A stretch of 64,000 bases of DNA. It comes from Planctomycetota bacterium (GTDB lineage Bacteria; Planctomycetota; PLA2; JAEUHO01). The stretch is from the NCBI GenBank assembly GCA_965222115.1, contig CBDCTJ010000003.1:160001-224000 (forward strand), in the 5' to 3' direction. The notes beneath the pieces are model-generated. The model had not been told where the DNA came from and ran no database searches. It saw only the letters and a program-made list of their open reading frames with translations. Shown piece after piece: positions 18,094 through 26,271 of the stretch (positions within the stretch are counted from its first letter, which is position 1; every line of letters starts with the position of its first letter). Position numbers and translations under genes: made by a program.

Positions 18094-19704
18094 CTAGTTG
18101 CAGGGAGAGCATAGCCCGGGGACCTCGCAGCCGGGGCTACGACGCCATTCCCAGCGGGAGGGCGCAACCATACGACGGGTCGTACGAGTCGCGTACTCGG
18201 CGGGAATCGGGATGCAACGCGTACGCGCAGGCGTAACGACGTATTGCTCAGCAACTTCGCGGTACTCAGCAGGAATGACTTCCTGGCGGCAGCTTGCGGG
18301 CTTCACCATCACACGCTCCATGACCGTCTTGTATTCGGCCGGGATCGGGATCTGGCGGGTGCTCGCGGGGCGAACGAGAACCTGCTTGGTACGTGTACCG
18401 TACTCAGCGGGAATGGTTTCCGTGCGGCAGCTTGCGGGCTTCACCATCACACGCTCCATGACCGTCTTGTATTCGGCCGGGATCGGGATCTGGCGGGTGC
18501 TCGCGGGACGAACGCAAACCTGCTTGGTGCGCGTGCCGTACTGGGCGGGAATCACTTCCGTACGGCTGCTAGCCGGGCGAATGCAATAGCGCTCCTGAAC
18601 GGTGCGATACTCGGCGGGGATGGTCTCGGTGCGGCAGCTTGCCGGACGAACCAATACGCGCTCCTGAACAGTATTGTACTGAGCGGGAATGGTCTCGGTG
18701 CGGCAGCTAGCGGGACGCACACAAACCTGACGGGTAACCGTCCGGTACTGCGGCGGGCACTGCTGAAGCTGCCAGCAATCACCACGGGTTTCGCCGGGAT
18801 TAACACCGCCACCCGTCTGGCAATCAATACGACGCCACTGGGTGGAACCGGGGCTGACCATGACCTGCTGCGACTGCGTGGTGTATTCGGCAGGAATCGG
18901 AATCTGACGAGTGCTCGCCGGACGTACGCAAACCTGCTTCGCACGCATTGTGTACTCGGCAGGAATCGGAATCTGGCGAGTGCTCGCCGGACGCACGAGA
19001 ACCTGCTTGGTACGTGTACCAAACTCAGCGGGAATCGGAATCACGCGAGTGCTCGCCGGACGAATGCAGTAGCGCTCTTCGACCGTGTTGTACTGCGCGG
19101 GAATCGTTTCGGTACGGCTGCTAGCCGGACGCACACAAACCTGCTTCGGACGCATTGCGTATTCAGCGGGGATCGGAATCTGACGAGTGCTCGCCGGACG
19201 AATGCAGTAGCGCTCTTCGACCGTCCTGTACTCGGCGGGAATCGTTTCGGTGCGGCAGCTTGCCGGACGAGCCAAAACCTGCTTCGGACGCATTGCGTAT
19301 TCAGCGGGAATCGGAATCTGGCGAGTGCTCGCCGGGCGGACCATGACGCGACGCGTACGCGTGCCCATCACAGCAGGAATCGTCTCTTGACGCTGCGAAG
19401 CTGGACGCACGCAAACCTGGACGGGAACGTCCTGATATTGCGCAGGTACCATTACGCGGCACCATGCCTCGCCGGGACGTGCTTGCGGCGGAAGGTCACC
19501 AGGACCTCCAGTTACGCCAGCAACCTGACCGACAGGCATTGTACCAACAGGCATCGCCGGACCGCACGCAGGCGGTTCGGGATCGGGAGACGGGCTCGCG
19601 TTAAGCGAGCACGTGTTGCAGGTAGGAAATAGGTCAACGCCGCAACAACCAGCGAGGACCGTGCAGAGACCCACAACGAACAAGGTGAAAATCCCTCGTC
19701 GCAT
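18094..19704 (-). CDS. Cys/Pro-rich lipoprotein with 18 copies of a 23-aa repeat (9+9 around a central loop)
   Basis: GAGGAGGG RBS, lipobox VLAG-C20, repeat PAxYxxxxxxVxVRPASxRxxxI visible at protein and DNA level. Confidence 0.92.
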   Translation of the reverse strand: MRRGIFTLFVVGLCTVLAGCCGVDLFPTCNTCSLNASPSPDPEPPACGPAMPVGTMPVGQVAGVTGGPGDLPPQARPGEAWCRVMVPAQYQDVPVQVCVRPASQRQETIPAVMGTRTRRVMVRPASTRQIPIPAEYAMRPKQVLARPASCRTETIPAEYRTVEERYCIRPASTRQIPIPAEYAMRPKQVCVRPASSRTETIPAQYNTVEERYCIRPASTRVIPIPAEFGTRTKQVLVRPASTRQIPIPAEYTMRAKQVCVRPASTRQIPIPAEYTTQSQQVMVSPGSTQWRRIDCQTGGGVNPGETRGDCWQLQQCPPQYRTVTRQVCVRPASCRTETIPAQYNTVQERVLVRPASCRTETIPAEYRTVQERYCIRPASSRTEVIPAQYGTRTKQVCVRPASTRQIPIPAEYKTVMERVMVKPASCRTETIPAEYGTRTKQVLVRPASTRQIPIPAEYKTVMERVMVKPASCRQEVIPAEYREVAEQYVVTPARTRCIPIPAEYATRTTRRMVAPSRWEWRRSPGCEVPGLCSPCN

Positions 19705-20295
19705 GTTCCCTCCTCATAGGAAGTATGAAAAAACCAAACGCCCGGAAGATCTGAACCCAACCCACAGGTTGCGAACCAAACCCACGCTCCGACACGCGCC
19801 GAAGCATCCCAACCGAGACGTTTTTCGAAAACTTGCCTCTGACGCTTCGACGCGAGCCGTCGCGAATCAGAAACTTCATCCGTCGCAAAACGGATTGGAC
19901 TGCCAGCCACCGAGACGCTCGATTCACGAGCCCCGGTAACCCTGCCGCCCTCCTTCGTCGCCACAGTGTAGGGTACGTCTTGACAGACGCACACCTTTAC
20001 TCATGGAAACCAGTAGAAGATTCAAGCCCACGTAAGGCCGAAATCAATGGTCGGAAAGCCAAACAAGCAGGCTTCTCGGACGAATTCAGGATCGCCGCGT
20101 CTCCAAAATAAAGCCGCGGCGAAGCCCGTCAGATCGGTCGCTCAGGAGTGAGACTTGAGGGTCTCCAACGGGGCTGTCACCGCTGTGTCATCGACTGCAA
20201 TGTCTTTGCGCTGTTCGTGCGTTCTTGTAGTACTCGGATACGGTCTTCGGCGCCCCAATGCGAGGCATCAATTCGGCCCGGGCGAAGGAGTCCAC

Positions 20296-20562
20296 GTGGA
20301 ACAGATAGCCATTCGCCTCACACAGAACGACACGTGGACGTACCTCGCGGGGGATTCGGATGCGAAGAAGGATCTCGAGGTCGTCGTGCGCGCCTTTGAC
20401 CACGATGCGCTAGCACGAACAGGCGCGTCTCAGACCGCACCTGATGGCGAGGAAGTGCTCGTGCCCGTGGGGCAAGGTCGCCGCCTGATCGGTAAACACT
20501 TCTTCGCCAGGCCCGCTGGAAAACACCGCCGCTGTTTGATTTCTTATCGCGGCATTGAGTAG
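20296..20562 (+). CDS. Small hypothetical protein (88 aa)
   Basis: AAGGAG RBS before GTG 20296; globular-looking sequence upstream of the TolC operon. Confidence 0.6.
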   Translation: MEQIAIRLTQNDTWTYLAGDSDAKKDLEVVVRAFDHDALARTGASQTAPDGEEVLVPVGQGRRLIGKHFFARPAGKHRRCLISYRGIE

Positions 20563-20623
20563 TCCGTCCCCGCGTACCGATTCGACACACTAGGGAGACC
20601 TGCCTCCCTACGGAGTCGGTGCT

Positions 20624-22369
20624 GTGCGAAGTCTCCCCTTGCCCGAGTGTTTGCGCGGGTTACTTGTTGCGTTGCTCGCCACCGGTTCATGGGGTTGCCA
20701 GGCGTGGACACCCGCGGCCGCCGATCGCGATGTGTATGGATTGCTTCACCATGCGCGCCAACAGGTACCGGACGTTGCGGGATCGCTGGCGCTGGATCAA
20801 GCGGAACGCGAGGCACGGCCGTATCGCAAAACCTGTGCGCAGCACGTAACGTTGGCGGAAGCGCTGGTTCTTGCCACCAAATCGTCGCGAACGTATCGCA
20901 ATGAACGCGAGTCGGTCTATCTCGCAGCGCTCAATCTGACGCTCGAGCAGAACGCGTTTCGTAAGCAACGATCCGGAAGCGCTTCTCTTGGCCTCGACAT
21001 CGACGAATCAGGTGAAACGCTTGAGGGGGAAGCGCAGTTCGGAGCGAGCAAACGTTGGTCAAATGGCGCGAGCGCAAGCTTCACGAGTCTTACCGACTTC
21101 GTTAAGCAGTTGGCAGAGAACCCCTTAAGCGCCGCACAGATGGTTCTCAATGCCAACTTTACGCTCCCCTTGCTTCGGGGTTCAAGCAAACTGGTGGTGC
21201 GCGAGCCACTCACGCAGGCCGAGCACGAGTTGCTCTACGCGCTTCGTGACTACGCGCGATTTCAGCAAACCTTCACGGTAGATGTTGCGACGCAGTATTA
21301 CCGCATCTTGCAACTCAAAGACATTGCTCGCAATGAGCGCGCATCAGAAGAACGACTTCGACGCTTGGTGGAAGTGCAGACCGACAAAGCAAAAGCGGGT
21401 CGCATTGCACCGTTCCAAGTGGACCAAGCCCGGCAGGACGTTCTACGCGCGCAGGATCGCGTGCAGCGCGCCGACGCCGATTTTCAAAACGCATTGGACG
21501 CGTTCAAGCTCGAGTTGTCCCTGCCGATTTGCGCCAAGCTCGAACTTGACCACAACGAACTTGCCCAGTTGCGTTCACGCGGGTTGCAAGACGCCCCCAT
21601 GCCGCAGCGACGCGCCATTCCCTTGGCATGTCACCATCGATTGGACTTACGGAACGAGCGCAACCGTACGCGCGACGCAAAGCGACAAATCCTCGTCGCA
21701 CGTGACGCGATTCGCGGGCAGTTGGACATTTCGCTTGGACCGCGCCTGGCCACGCCGGATCGCCAACCTTTCAATCTGTTGAATCTCAGTCCGTCGGCAC
21801 TGTTGGGTTTGGAGCTCGACTTGCCCTTGGAACGCACGCAGGAGCGCAACGCATGGCGCCGCGCGTGCCTCGCGGCGGTTCGCGCACGTAGAAGCGAAGA
21901 GCGCCTCAGTGACCAAGTCGTCCTGCAAGTACGTGAGGCCTATCGCCGCATTGAGCGCGCGCGTCGAAGTTTCGATATCCAGAAGGAAGGTGTTGAGGTT
22001 GCCGAACGACGCGTGGAAAGCACAGAGATGCACTTGGAACGTGGCACGGCATCGATTCGCGACCGGCTCGAAGCCGAGGCGTCGTTGGTCCAGGCGCGCA
22101 ATGCGCTAACAAGTGCCCTCGTCGATCACGCATCGATTCGGCTATCGCTCTTGCGCGACATTGGTATCTTGCGTGTGGACGCTGCAGGCCGTTGGGAACA
22201 CGTTCCCCCACCGATCGATGCCCCTGCGGCGGATTCGAAGCAACCCGCGCCAATCGTTCGAAGTGCCGATGTGCCCAATCTCGATGGTGCGCCCTCGCAA
22301 GCACGAGCCCCCCGCTCCGTGCATAGCGAAGGTGATCCCGAAGCGTCATTGGGCACGGCTCGCCGGTAG
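20624..22369 (+). CDS. TolC-family outer membrane efflux protein (likely lipoprotein)
   Basis: Signal ending SWGC, VTLAEAL..A, LPLLRG, VATQYYRIL, RLDLRN, QVREAYR, DRLEAEASL. First gene of the adaptor/ABC operon. Confidence 0.88.
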   Translation: MRSLPLPECLRGLLVALLATGSWGCQAWTPAAADRDVYGLLHHARQQVPDVAGSLALDQAEREARPYRKTCAQHVTLAEALVLATKSSRTYRNERESVYLAALNLTLEQNAFRKQRSGSASLGLDIDESGETLEGEAQFGASKRWSNGASASFTSLTDFVKQLAENPLSAAQMVLNANFTLPLLRGSSKLVVREPLTQAEHELLYALRDYARFQQTFTVDVATQYYRILQLKDIARNERASEERLRRLVEVQTDKAKAGRIAPFQVDQARQDVLRAQDRVQRADADFQNALDAFKLELSLPICAKLELDHNELAQLRSRGLQDAPMPQRRAIPLACHHRLDLRNERNRTRDAKRQILVARDAIRGQLDISLGPRLATPDRQPFNLLNLSPSALLGLELDLPLERTQERNAWRRACLAAVRARRSEERLSDQVVLQVREAYRRIERARRSFDIQKEGVEVAERRVESTEMHLERGTASIRDRLEAEASLVQARNALTSALVDHASIRLSLLRDIGILRVDAAGRWEHVPPPIDAPAADSKQPAPIVRSADVPNLDGAPSQARAPRSVHSEGDPEASLGTARR

Positions 22370-22372
22370 AGT

Positions 22373-24274
22373 GTGGGGATGCCGCCCTCGTTTCCTTATC
22401 GCTTCGCCCACGCACCCCATCGTTCCGGTCCCCCACGCCGTTCGCACACGACGTGGTTGACGTCTGAATATGGTGGCGCTCGACTGGGCCTCTTGGCACT
22501 CGCACTTTTGGCCGGATGTGGATTTGGCGCATGGTGGCTCATGCGTGACGGCACGGCTGCCGAACGGTCCACGTTGTCGTTCACGCCACCGATCGCGCCG
22601 CGCGCGGTAACACTCAACGTGATTGAAAGTGGCAGCCTCGAAGCGTTGAAGTTTCACCGCGTAACCAGCGAAGTGGAGTCGCGCGTTGAAGTGACCTATA
22701 TCGCGCCCGAGGGCAAGATCATTACCGACGAAGACGTACGCAACAAGGTTGTGCTTGTGCGACTCGATGGTTCGACCATTGAAGAAAAGTTACTCGCTCA
22801 AGAGAGCAACGTCATCACTGCCCAAGCAAACTACGACAATGCGATCGCGAGTCGCGATATACAAGTTCAACAGAACGCCAGCGACATTCGCAAGGCGCGC
22901 CTGGATGTTCGTTTCGCACGATTGGACGTCGAGCGCTACGTGGGTACAGCGGCCTGGGAAGACCTTTCCGCGATCCAGGAAATGTCGAAGACCACCGACG
23001 GCGACACATCCACCAAAGGCAATGTGTCTACGGCAAGCGAAAACCTCTTGTCCGCAATCGAGGGGTTGTTGAGTCGCAAGGAACTTGATGGCGAAGCACT
23101 GCAGAAGACGCGCGAACTCGACAGCGCGATTTCACTTGCCCAAGAAGAACACTCCCGCGCCGATGACAAACTCAAGTACTCGGAACGCTTGGAAAAGAAG
23201 GGCTTCATTAGCCGTGATGAACTCCAGGCCGACCGGCTTGCCTTACAGCGTCGGGCGATTGAGTTGGAGTCGGCCAAGACCGCGCGCAATCAGTTCGTAC
23301 GCTACGACTTTCCGAAAGAAGTCGAGCAGTTGCTATCGGATGTATCCGCGGCCGAGGACGCCTTGGCACGCGCCATCGCGAAAGCCAAGTCCGCACGTCG
23401 TCGCGTGGAAGCCGACGTGCAAAACGATCTCACACAGGTCAAGCAACAGACGCGGCGGCGGGATCGCTTCAAGCAGCAACTTGAGCATTGCGAGATTCGG
23501 GCGACCAAGCCGGGGCTTGTGGTGTATGCCAGCAGCGGCAGGGGGCGATGGGGACGCGACGAAGACGAGATTCGAGAAGGCGCCACCGTGCGTCATCGGC
23601 AGACGTTGATTCGCATTCCTGACCCCAAGCGAATGGGCGTTGAAACCACGGTGCACGAAACCGTCGTGGATCGCGTCAAAGTCGGACAACGGGCTTTCGT
23701 CGTGGTCGATGCCGATCCCAATACGCGCCTGAACGCAAGAGTCATCAAAGTGGCGCGTATGCCCAAGCCACCGAACCGGTGGATCAACCCCGATTTGAAA
23801 GTGTATGAAACCACGCTGGAACTCGAGGGCACGCACCCCGAGCTAAAACCTGGCATGAGCGTACAAGTTGAGATTGTGACGCGCACGTTGGACGAGGTGC
23901 TTGCGATTCCAATTCAGTGCCTTGCAGGGCCTGTTGAAACGCCACATGTATATGTTCGACGTACGGACGCCGACGGGCACGAAGCGACGAAGAAGCAACC
24001 CGTTACGCCAGGGCCAACGACCGAGCATCTCGTTGTGATTGAGAGCGGATTGCAGTCGGGGCAACAGGTGTTGCTCAATCCGCCAGAAGAGAAGGCCGAA
24101 GAAAAGAACGTGAATTCGGATAGGCGCGACGCACGACCGCGAGGCGATGGTAAGCGTGCGAACGAAAAGGGGCCCGGCGCCAATACGTCGGGCTCCAGTA
24201 GGCATATGCCGCGAAAGAAGTCCACGCCCGGCGAAACGTCTGGCAAAGGCAAGCCCGCCCGGACGCGGGAGTAG
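22373..24274 (+). CDS. Efflux periplasmic adaptor (HlyD/MacA-like) with long coiled coil
   Basis: N-terminal TM, ESGSLEA, EIRATKPGLVVY, VKVGQRA, LKPGMSVQVEI, IESGL..GQQV. Confidence 0.9.
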   Translation: MGMPPSFPYRFAHAPHRSGPPRRSHTTWLTSEYGGARLGLLALALLAGCGFGAWWLMRDGTAAERSTLSFTPPIAPRAVTLNVIESGSLEALKFHRVTSEVESRVEVTYIAPEGKIITDEDVRNKVVLVRLDGSTIEEKLLAQESNVITAQANYDNAIASRDIQVQQNASDIRKARLDVRFARLDVERYVGTAAWEDLSAIQEMSKTTDGDTSTKGNVSTASENLLSAIEGLLSRKELDGEALQKTRELDSAISLAQEEHSRADDKLKYSERLEKKGFISRDELQADRLALQRRAIELESAKTARNQFVRYDFPKEVEQLLSDVSAAEDALARAIAKAKSARRRVEADVQNDLTQVKQQTRRRDRFKQQLEHCEIRATKPGLVVYASSGRGRWGRDEDEIREGATVRHRQTLIRIPDPKRMGVETTVHETVVDRVKVGQRAFVVVDADPNTRLNARVIKVARMPKPPNRWINPDLKVYETTLELEGTHPELKPGMSVQVEIVTRTLDEVLAIPIQCLAGPVETPHVYVRRTDADGHEATKKQPVTPGPTTEHLVVIESGLQSGQQVLLNPPEEKAEEKNVNSDRRDARPRGDGKRANEKGPGANTSGSSRHMPRKKSTPGETSGKGKPARTRE

Positions 24275-24283
24275 TTCCCACAC

Positions 24284-25003
24284 ATGGCGGAAACGTCGCT
24301 ACCGATTGCGCCCGCCACGACCGACGTGGTTGCACTTGTGGATGCCCGTCGCACCTATGCAATGGGTGACAGCGAAGTACACGCACTCGATGGCGTCAAT
24401 CTGACCGTGCCACCAGGCGAGTACCTCGCCATTATGGGACAGTCCGGATCCGGCAAGAGCACCATGCTCAACATTCTTGGTTGTTTGGATCGACTGACAA
24501 GCGGGCACTATCGTTTGGATGGCAACGACGTGAGCGCGCTCGACGACAGCAGTCTGTCGCGTATGCGCAATCGACGGCTCGGTTTCGTATTTCAGTCCTA
24601 CAACTTAATCCCTCACCTAACGGTTCTCGAAAACATCGAAGTCCCTATGGAATACGCGGCCGTATCACGCAGTGCCGCCCGTGCACGCGCGATCGAACTC
24701 GCCACCCGCATGGGACTCGATCAACGCATGCGTCACCGCCCCACCGAACTCTCGGGCGGCCAGCAACAGCGTGTGGCCATTGCCCGTGCCCTGGCGAACG
24801 CACCGTCGGTGATCCTTGCCGATGAACCCACCGGCAACCTGGACTCCGCCACAGGCCGCGAAATTTTGAATCTACTCGATGACTTGAGTACGGCGGGCAA
24901 CACGCTGATCGTTGTGACGCACGATCCAAGTGTGGCGGCCCACGCACACCGCACCATTCACATGCTCGACGGGCGCATCGACCGCGAAGAGAGGCGTTCA
25001 TGA
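24284..25003 (+). CDS. ABC transporter ATP-binding protein (MacB/LolD-like)
   Basis: [47 protein letters not shown]. Confidence 0.96.
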
Positions 25004-26271
25004 GACTCGGGCGACTGTTTCGCTTGGCGTGCAAGAGCCTGTGGCTGCACCGCTTGCGCTCACTACTCACGGTGTTGGGCATTGTCTTCGGCGTGGGCAG
25101 CGTCGTCGCCATGTTGGCCATCGGCGAGGGCGCCAGCCAAGAGGCACAAGAACAGATTCGCCGCATGGGCAGTCGCAACATATTGCTTGCATCGGTACCG
25201 CCTCCCGATGAAGGCGACGCGTCGCAGGAGAACTCGCGAGTAAGTGCGTATGGACTGCTGCAGAGTGATCTGGAGGGCATGCGCGAGACCATTCAGGGCA
25301 TTCGGCGCTTTGTGCCACGGCGCGACATCCCCTCCGAGGCGCGCTACGGGCGTCGAAAGTTCAATACGGTCATCATGGGCACCACCCATGACTACGTAGA
25401 ACTCGCCAACCTCCAATTGGCGACCGGACGCTTTCTCAATGCCCGTGATGCTGCCTATCGCGCCTCCGTGTGCGTGTTGGGAGCCAGCGTGCGCGACGCA
25501 TTGTTCAAGAACATCGATCCCGTGGGACTTCAGCTTCGTATCGGTCGCAACAGTTTTCGAATTGTGGGTACGCTTGAAACGCGCGGCGAAGGGACCGGCG
25601 CCACGGCGGGCTACGGCGGCGAGTCGGATGCGGCCGTGTTCATTCCATTGGAGACCATGAAGCGGCGCTACGGCCAAGTCATTCGACACAACTCAAGCGG
25701 AAGTTGGACGCGCGAACGCATCGAATTGCATCGCATCACCGTTGAATCCGAAAGTGACCACGAGGATGACATTGCCCGCACCGCGGCAGCGCTTCGACAT
25801 TTCCTCAAAGGTCGTCATCCGAAGAACGATGTGCGCGTCACCGTTCCGCAAGAACTGCTGCGACAAGCGCGTGAAACGAAACGGCGCTTCACGATTATCT
25901 TGGGTTCCATCGCTGCCATCTCGTTGCTCGTGGGTGGGATCGGCATTATGAACATCATGCTCGCCACCGTGGTTGAACGAACACGCGAAGTGGGTGTGCG
26001 GCGAGCGCTCGGTGCGCGACGAAGTCACATTATTGCGCAATTCCTCTCTGAAACGGTGTTGCTCTCCATTGGCGGCGGCCTGCTTGGATTGGCGCTGGGG
26101 GTTGCACTACCCAAACTCGTCACCAAGTTCTTTCACATGGCCACCGTTGTGGATCCCCGCTTCCTCATTCTTGCTTTCGGCATTTCGGCGCTCGTGGGCT
26201 TGGTCTTCGGTATGTATCCGGCAATTCGCGCGGCGGACTTGGATCCCGTGGAAGCGTTGCGACACGAGTAG
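25000..26271 (+). CDS. MacB-type ABC transporter permease
   Basis: RSLLTVLGIVFGVGSVVAM, ISLLVGGIGIMNIMLATVVERTREVG, PA.RAA.LDPVEALR. ATGA overlap with the ATPase gene. Confidence 0.95.
   Translation: MRLGRLFRLACKSLWLHRLRSLLTVLGIVFGVGSVVAMLAIGEGASQEAQEQIRRMGSRNILLASVPPPDEGDASQENSRVSAYGLLQSDLEGMRETIQGIRRFVPRRDIPSEARYGRRKFNTVIMGTTHDYVELANLQLATGRFLNARDAAYRASVCVLGASVRDALFKNIDPVGLQLRIGRNSFRIVGTLETRGEGTGATAGYGGESDAAVFIPLETMKRRYGQVIRHNSSGSWTRERIELHRITVESESDHEDDIARTAAALRHFLKGRHPKNDVRVTVPQELLRQARETKRRFTIILGSIAAISLLVGGIGIMNIMLATVVERTREVGVRRALGARRSHIIAQFLSETVLLSIGGGLLGLALGVALPKLVTKFFHMATVVDPRFLILAFGISALVGLVFGMYPAIRAADLDPVEALRHE

Follow-up and report, generated by a model that had tools for sequence, protein, structure and literature searches.

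A planctomycete lipoprotein with two complementary arrays of 23-residue repeats, a probable giant antiparallel beta-hairpin

Repeat proteins are normally built on contacts between neighbouring repeats. A 64,000-nucleotide stretch from a Planctomycetota bacterium (contig CBDCTJ010000003.1, positions 160,001 to 224,000; hereafter the window) encodes a lipoprotein, P0001, in which two arrays of 23-residue units, arm 1 and arm 2, flank a short loop, and the question raised by this locus is how the two arrays fold. A first-pass annotation, made from the sequence alone, had proposed that the chain folds back at the loop into one giant antiparallel hairpin, its register being set by two complementary types of segment. 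This proposal was supported here by covariation between the arms, by equal arms in relatives, by complementarity specific to one register and by mirrored AlphaFold2 (AF2) profiles. We think it probable that the arms pair antiparallel as a single two-stranded beta-ribbon of ~212 residues per arm, with the tip closed by the C295–C310 loop, and we propose that this ribbon may serve as an envelope fibre or spacer. The two arrays appear to be joined by contacts that bridge hundreds of residues.

Two repeat arrays with complementary unit types

Anchors of the form P-[AP]-x-[YFM] were located at residues 87, 110 ... 271 in arm 1 and 317, 340 ... 501 in arm 2 of P0001. All 16 within-arm anchor steps were exactly 23 residues, and the loop was bracketed by C295-(14 residues)-C310, confirming the annotated layout of two nine-unit arms around a Cys-closed loop. 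Periods of 69 and 138 nucleotides were detected in both halves of the gene by Tandem Repeats Finder. The unit count of 9+9 rests on the assembly, the repeat arrays being spanned by no read or contig; short contigs of four sequencing runs tiled the greater part of the 2-kb region, differing at no more than one position, and broke inside the repeats.

Each unit carries an A segment of R or V type and a B segment of I or E type, and these types were assigned by script from the two-state rules of the first-pass annotation. Along arm 1, the A types read V R R V R V R R x and the B types E I E I E I I I; along arm 2, the A types read V V V R V R V V R and the B types E E E I E I E I. When the chain was folded back in the register centred on the loop, 8/8 scorable A pairs and 8/8 scorable B pairs were complementary, exactly as had been claimed, and no other register of comparable overlap matched. 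Among the other 14 antiparallel unit registers, the best of those with at least six scorable pairs of each kind gave A 4/7 with B 5/6, and at shorter overlaps at most one of the two codes was complementary (e.g. A 3/3 with B 1/3). Parallel pairing at shift 0 gave A 7/8 and B 2/8; parallel registers were fully complementary only at overlaps of two to four units (4/4 and 3/3 at shift +5, 2/2 and 2/2 at shift −6). The chance of 16/16 was 3.2e-4 in 200,000 label shuffles within arm 2 and 6.5e-4 with adjacent B/A labels kept linked, and these figures are to be read with the recent two-unit duplicates of both arms (88–94% DNA identity) in mind, owing to which fewer than 16 independent events underlie the 16 pairs.

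The register was also scanned by residue, taking i+j as the sum of the numbers of two facing residues. Over i+j from 480 to 729, charge complementarity was best at 603 (23 opposite and 6 like pairs), and i+j = 602 brought 18 Pro opposite Pro and the most hydrophobic pairs. P0001 has 27 Cys, as counted previously. No Cys faced another across the arms at i+j = 600–606, and the protein carries, besides its Cys-rich ends, 14 Cys inside the arms that have no cross-arm partner, in agreement with the suggestion that most Cys are unpaired across the hairpin.

Covariation between the arms

Covariation was calculated as mutual information with average product correction (APC) from alignment A2, which comprised 102 homologues of the ~800-aa class (10+10 units, 27–40% identical to P0001). 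The query was left out, the effective number of sequences (Neff) was 52, and 792 columns were used; query residues 80–527 were covered by a mean of 101.7 of the 102 rows, with at least one uncovered position. Long-range covariation fell on one anti-diagonal, at sums 884, 883, 882 and 881 in the numbering of the homologue P0004 (z 8.8, 7.8, 6.6 and 4.8 among 397 anti-diagonals), and 19 of the top 50 arm 1 × arm 2 pairs lay on sums 881–885. Before an insertion in arm 2, the line continued at sums 836–838 (z 5.0, 4.2 and 3.2). The top pairs, true residue covariations on inspection, mapped to i+j = 600–604 in query numbering, which is the loop-centred register. The single anti-diagonal that had been named as a check of the hairpin was thus found.

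No comparable signal was present on the parallel diagonals of A2 (best z 3.1). A meander of short hairpins would show itself on local antiparallel diagonals, and these averaged at most 0.010 vs 0.024–0.031 on the long-range anti-diagonal; the i,i+2 signal typical of strands was present. By unit position, the pairing sums were a+b = 16 for A segments (8 opposite 8, 7 opposite 9 and P1 opposite P15) and a+b = 40 for B segments (20 opposite 20, 19 opposite 21). Pooled unit-pair mutual information from 86 hairpins gave a broad rise, confounded by special terminal units and pooled kin, and was replaced by column covariation.

The arm-2 insertion of the ~800-aa homologues (P0004 residues ~507–575) shifts the covariation line by 46–47 residues, i.e. 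the length of two units, and might be a derivative of an unmatched two-unit bulge. A conserved N-terminal domain of ~170 aa, in which several Cys occur, is likewise common to these homologues.

Predicted structure

The AF2 model of P0001 built with A2 had a mean predicted local distance difference test score (pLDDT) of 69.8. Strand and confidence profiles were read rather than coordinates or a contact map, so that the AF2 evidence for the pairing of the arms is indirect. Nineteen strands were predicted across residues 81–292 and 19 across residues 311–522, and all 19 strand pairs were mirrored at i+j = 603, including the shortened strands 218–221 and 382–385. The pLDDT of 10-residue blocks correlated at r = 0.97 under the mirror mapping, at no more than 0.55 under other mirror offsets and at 0.69 under the best parallel shift. 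An earlier model from the mixed alignment A1 (85 rows), in which MAFFT had left arm-1 units 4–6 uncovered, had a disordered middle and a pLDDT of 61 and was replaced by the A2 model. Complex prediction of arm 1 (78–296) with arm 2 (309–527) gave a score of 0.05 (mark 0.32) and weighs neither way.

Searches of the PDB with both P0001 models by Foldseek gave nothing at E ≤ 0.001, and phmmer with the P0001 sequence gave nothing below E 0.9; the A2 profile matched PDB entries only through PG_binding_1 (positions 763–816). None of the ESM Atlas look-alikes of P0001, which are leads only, scored 0.9 or more.

Arm lengths and complementarity in relatives

Matches at E ≤ 1e-20 were found in 22/28 genomes of the same family and in 0/32 genomes of other families. 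Arms were equal in 24 of the 27 distinct loci of relatives (3+3, 4+4, 5+5, 6+6 or 7+7) and two loci were cut by contig ends, so that the predicted symmetric gain and loss of units was borne out with one exception. In several relatives each arm had just one odd unit, the two being fold-back partners (e.g. R-type unit 2 with V-type unit n−1′ in L007 and L012).

Complementarity was assessed in 20 hairpins of the Cys-rich clade, P0001 being excluded. Position 9 was acidic on exactly one arm in 77/85 pairs, vs fractions of 0.46–0.60 in shifted registers. Pro22 occurred on exactly one partner in 47/65 pairs and R/K7 in 61/85, and Pro22 was opposite Pro22 in only 2/73. In a within-hairpin permutation, 108/150 was observed vs 80.8 ± 4.3 expected, with a maximum of 98 in 20,000 permutations.

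The history of the arrays was visible in P0001 itself. Units 7 and 6′ were 88% identical at the DNA level, one unit type thus occurring in both arms. The duplicated blocks {3,4 / 6′,7′} and {5,6 / 4′,5′} were exact fold-back partners, indicating that a two-unit duplication in one arm was matched in the other, as a hairpin demands.

Further copies were noted in the same genome. The paralogue L002 (988–2325, +, on contig C7) encodes 445 aa, in which 3+3 units with the start, loop and end motifs known from P0001 are followed by a long C-terminal tail rich in Pro; its two B pairs and its two outer A pairs were complementary by eye, and all orthologues of this type (L015, L017, L018, L025 and L029) have 3+3 units. 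L005 (1159–2748, +), as well as L020 and L021, combines degenerate units with a Cys-rich loop and carries DUF11 at the C-terminus (E 1.6e-5), indicating that the hairpin module is combined with other surface domains. L003 (C7, 35219–35428) has a 79-residue stretch 69% identical to units 2′–4′, inside an open frame of ~1,000 aa.

A large family of 23-residue P-A-x-Y repeat proteins

At E ≤ 1e-3, 4,068 of 8,000 scored candidates were homologous to P0001 (best E 4.1e-91), as were 1,682 representatives of 50%-identity clusters. Named sources included Variovorax, Hydrogenophaga, Acidobacteriota and Zhongshania, and the closest named records, at 58% and 48% identity, came from metagenome bins of Planctomycetales and Planctomycetota, respectively. 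All homologues were laid out alike, with a first arm of start motif, n units and W-motif, then a loop, and a second arm of start motif, n units and W...C. The family motifs, G-E-x-W/Y-C at the arm start and W...C at the arm end, are fitted by P0001 with 9+9 units, and C526 was invariant in A1 and A2.

An anchor parser applied to 265 sequences read 68 as 10 + (3 + insertion + 7), 37 as 4+4 and 11 as 5+5. The final parser, applied to 291 sequences, found 84 equal adjacent arm pairs in 74 proteins and seven unequal pairs, the remaining sequences not being parsed by its arm rule. Among the unequal pairs, L031 was a parsing error and P0038 had one irregular 32-residue unit. The first, motif-based arm parser had miscounted arm 1 in planctomycete proteins, where unit 1 also has Trp, and was rewritten.

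PG_binding_1 was present in 116 of the 120 best listed homologues and OmpA_C in a few. P0001 had no Pfam match to these peptidoglycan-binding domains, only 10 residues following C526, and its Cys-rich relatives also lack such a C-terminal domain, indicating that it is not universal in the family. The repeats of P0001 matched no Pfam or NCBIfam model. Chlam_OMP6 (PF03504) reached 10.5 bits (E 0.77) vs a gathering score of 34.1 and was rejected, as were YTV (PF07639), absent from the hmmscan of P0001 even at E up to 10, and the sub-threshold matches to HAUS2 (Pfam) and RemA (NCBIfam).

A model of the hairpin and its alternatives

In the hairpin model, the lipid anchor and the C-terminus would lie together at the open end of the ribbon, where the C-terminal peptidoglycan-binding domain of homologues is also placed. 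Each unit pair would meet at two dyad points, one per A and B segment. In the A segment, position 7 would lie opposite position 9 of the partner, and an Arg7/Lys9 unit would need a Val7/Glu9 partner, which would bring Arg opposite Glu and keep like charges apart. At the B dyad, position 19 would lie opposite position 21, with Arg19 facing Glu21 and Pro22 on one strand only. The facing of Arg7 with Glu9 and of Arg19 with Glu21 would be the physical reason for both complementarities. Pro-Ala of P-A-x-Y would lie opposite Pro-Ala of R-P-A-S, breaking the ribbon into alternating segments of 12 and 7 residues. With unit types mixed along each arm of P0001, only the loop-centred register would satisfy all pairs, and we infer that the mixed pattern disfavours slipped pairing, i.e. 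that the code sets the register. The array would lengthen by matched duplications in both arms. If straight, the ribbon would carry its tip up to ~60–70 nm away (212 residues × ~0.33 nm), and Pro-Pro kinks may shorten it.

Covariation and complementarity cannot separate contacts within a chain from those between chains, and the same antiparallel register might be formed by arm 1 with arm 2 of another chain, in domain-swapped dimers or open-ended filaments; many unpaired Cys and amphipathic faces would suit such assemblies. However, the 14-residue loop bracketed by Cys295 and Cys310 and the Cys conserved at both arm ends favour closure of one chain, and equal arms are needed by a closed hairpin and less strictly by a swapped polymer, so that pairing between molecules seems unlikely. 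A purely local fold, in which the 12-residue strand pairs with the 7-residue strand across Pro-Ala turns and the units stack as a meander or solenoid, with the arms as independent domains, is more improbable still. Pro-Ala could turn, and the AF2 secondary-structure string by itself fits a meander, but no local antiparallel covariation was seen at any turn centre (mean APC-corrected mutual information, MIp, ≤ 0.010, with the long-range anti-diagonal up to 0.031), and such a fold leaves the complementarity of distant units, the equal arms and the mirrored confidence dips unexplained. We give very little credence to the idea that the mirror pattern is a by-product of duplication history with no structural meaning. 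Two-unit duplications did occur in both arms, one unit type is found in both (7 vs 6′), and part of each arm alternates in type, which raises chance matches; yet the irregular parts match too, the duplicated blocks are exactly fold-back partners, and relatives with other patterns and unit numbers are also complementary.

Several observations weigh against the single-chain hairpin. The confidence of AF2 was moderate, with a predicted template modelling score (pTM) of 0.32; the mirrored strands largely follow from a periodic, palindromic strand pattern, and a parallel pLDDT shift still gives r = 0.69. The covariation came from a different subfamily and not from P0001's own clade. The relative L011 (= L036), from a co-assembled metagenome bin (Planctomycetales), has 4+6 units and is the sole complete relative with unequal arms; its sisters have 6+6, with three near-identical units where L011 has one, and it is either a repeat collapse in assembly, which is possible, or a real intermediate. 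Owing to kinship among the relatives, the permutation p-value overstates the case. Complementarity was kept by the 20 Cys-rich hairpins, in the fold-back register only; 63 non-Cys-rich hairpins have uniform arms (acidic arm 1, basic arm 2) and no register-specific signal, and the mixed code would thus be an elaboration, not required for the fold.

With these points considered, the single-chain antiparallel hairpin remains the reading that we prefer. A bolder version of it, possible but on the whole doubtful, is that two-state complementarity specifies a unique register, as a protein counterpart of the nucleic-acid hairpin, that the array grows only by matched duplications, and that planctomycete ribbons are disulfide-linked into an envelope layer or set its spacing, replacing the peptidoglycan-binding domain.

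The P0001 gene and its surroundings

The features of the gene are collected in Table 1.

Table 1. Features of the P0001 gene and its downstream hairpin, in window coordinates
Feature	Position	Strand	Basis
Whole open reading frame (ORF) of P0001, 536 aa + stop codon	18094..19704	−	Homologues reach E 4e-91
Signal peptide (residues 1–20) with lipobox L-A-G-C (17–20); Cys20, predicted lipidation site	19645..19704	−	Sequence, by eye
Cys/Pro-rich linker, residues 21–77, with Cys21, 29, 32 and 47	19474..19644	−	pLDDT < 50
Arm 1: start motif G-E-A-W-C (78–82), nine 23-aa units (87–293), end motif W290 + C295	18820..19473	−	AF2 strands 81–292
Loop, residues 296–309, between C295 and C310	18778..18819	−	pLDDT < 50 at 296–298 and 300–307
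Arm 2: start motif (G-D-)C-W (C310, W311; G308 and D309 within the loop part), nine 23-aa units (317–523), end motif W520 + C526	18127..18777	−	AF2 strands 311–522
Short C-terminal tail, residues 527–536, with Cys532 and Cys535, without peptidoglycan-binding domain	18097..18126	−	Sequence, Pfam scan
Arm-1 units 3–6, two-unit tandem duplication	19033..19308	−	DNA identity: 3 vs 5 90%, 4 vs 6 88%
Arm-2 units 4′–7′, matching two-unit duplication, fold-back partners of arm-1 units 3–6	18274..18549	−	DNA identity: 5′ vs 7′ 94%, 4′ vs 6′ 88%
Terminator-like hairpin, 13-bp stem then T-rich tail, ~130 nt past the P0001 stop codon	17926..17965	−	Consensus scan only

P0001 opens with M-R-R, followed by hydrophobic residues that lead up to L-A-G-C20. 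By eye, this N-terminus shows an n-region with positive charge, a hydrophobic h-region and a lipobox of the form L-[AS]-[GA]-C, and P0001 is predicted to be a bacterial lipoprotein whose signal peptide is of type II; the lipobox at Cys20 agrees with the first annotation. Lipobox-like [LV]-[AT]-G-C sequences also occur in the relatives L012, L013, L036 and L037. P0001 contains 12.1% Pro, 11.8% Arg and 5.0% Cys, and its arms are strongly basic (R+K 16.3% vs D+E 7.5%).

Opposite the repeats lies an open frame of 462 aa (18244–19632, +), in all likelihood the shadow of a coding strand that is repetitive and rich in GC. Divergently upstream of the P0001 gene, genes at 20624–26271 (+) encode a TolC-like outer membrane efflux protein (OEP), an HlyD-like adaptor, an ABC ATPase and a MacB-type permease. 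The gap between the lipoprotein and OEP genes is unusually long (19705–20623, ~920 bp) and contains terminator-like stem-loops (19783–19807, −) upstream of the P0001 start codon. In the genomes of 14 relatives (L007, L009–L013, L016, L023, L024, L026, L030, L031, L033 and L034), the hairpin gene has an OEP homologue next to it, and in L036 and L037 the hairpin gene is followed by a transketolase gene. The OEP–hairpin gene order is conserved across genera of one family, a weak sign of a functional tie to a TolC/MacB-type pump.

Significance and comparison with known systems

No solved structure matches the repeats of P0001, and a full-text literature search found no description of them. On these negatives from Pfam/NCBIfam, the PDB and the literature, the pairing of distant repeat arrays by a two-state code and the structural reading of the repeat family would be new. 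Predicted models of homologues are surely in public databases, and the hairpin may have been noticed informally. The two-state complementarity seems to fix the register, and covariation, the evolution of unit number and the duplication history agree with it. If true, P0001 would be a natural example of programmable beta-sheet registry, useful for protein design, and would offer a structural reading for a very large envelope family (the 1,682 clusters) named only by its peptidoglycan-binding end. Planctomycete envelopes have long been reported to contain a protein component rich in Cys and Pro, and P0001 would also be a concrete candidate for it.

We propose that P0001 is an elongated fibre or spacer of the envelope, strongly basic in character. 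By analogy, the Cys-rich, domain-less branch may be anchored by intermolecular disulfides in place of peptidoglycan binding. According to one study (PMC8567305), Cys-rich proteins occur in planctomycete envelopes, and preparations of planctomycete cell walls contained YTV proteins. The planctomycete YTV cell-wall proteins and the chlamydial OmcB are, like P0001, Cys-rich envelope proteins, and come from related phyla (the PVC, Planctomycetes–Verrucomicrobia–Chlamydiae, superphylum). Among the feature-based look-alikes of P0001, a YTV cluster ranked third (score 0.76), which is a lead only, with no PF07639 match.

Homologues annotated only as 'peptidoglycan-binding protein' or 'OmpA-like' resemble P0001 in their 23-residue units, in the motifs that open and close each arm and in having equal arms around a loop. 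These homologues, e.g. the ~800-aa class (named from Variovorax, Hydrogenophaga and Acidobacteriota) and that of Zhongshania, end in PG_binding_1 or OmpA_C, have few Cys and carry a uniformly acidic arm 1 and a uniformly basic arm 2, whereas P0001 has no such domain, 5% Cys and mixed unit types. Lpp and the OmpA/Pal-type tethers are elongated envelope proteins that are lipid-anchored or bind peptidoglycan, Lpp being an alpha-helical trimer of 58 residues. Braun's Lpp and the OmpA/Pal tethers offer a possible functional analogy to P0001 as spacer or tether, with no sequence relation (no NCBIfam or Pfam match).

The top Foldseek matches, none of them significant (best E 0.08–0.1), were the stem hairpins of pore-forming toxins and the tail knob of phage phi29. 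These too are long two-stranded hairpins, but with tens of residues per arm and set in barrels or many-subunit tubes. OspA and the G5-E repeats of SasG/Aap form single-layer beta-sheet rods from repeats, without a conventional hydrophobic core, each repeat folding with its sequence neighbours. P0001 would resemble these rods as a thin, extended beta structure, but its repeats would pair with partners up to ~430 residues away.

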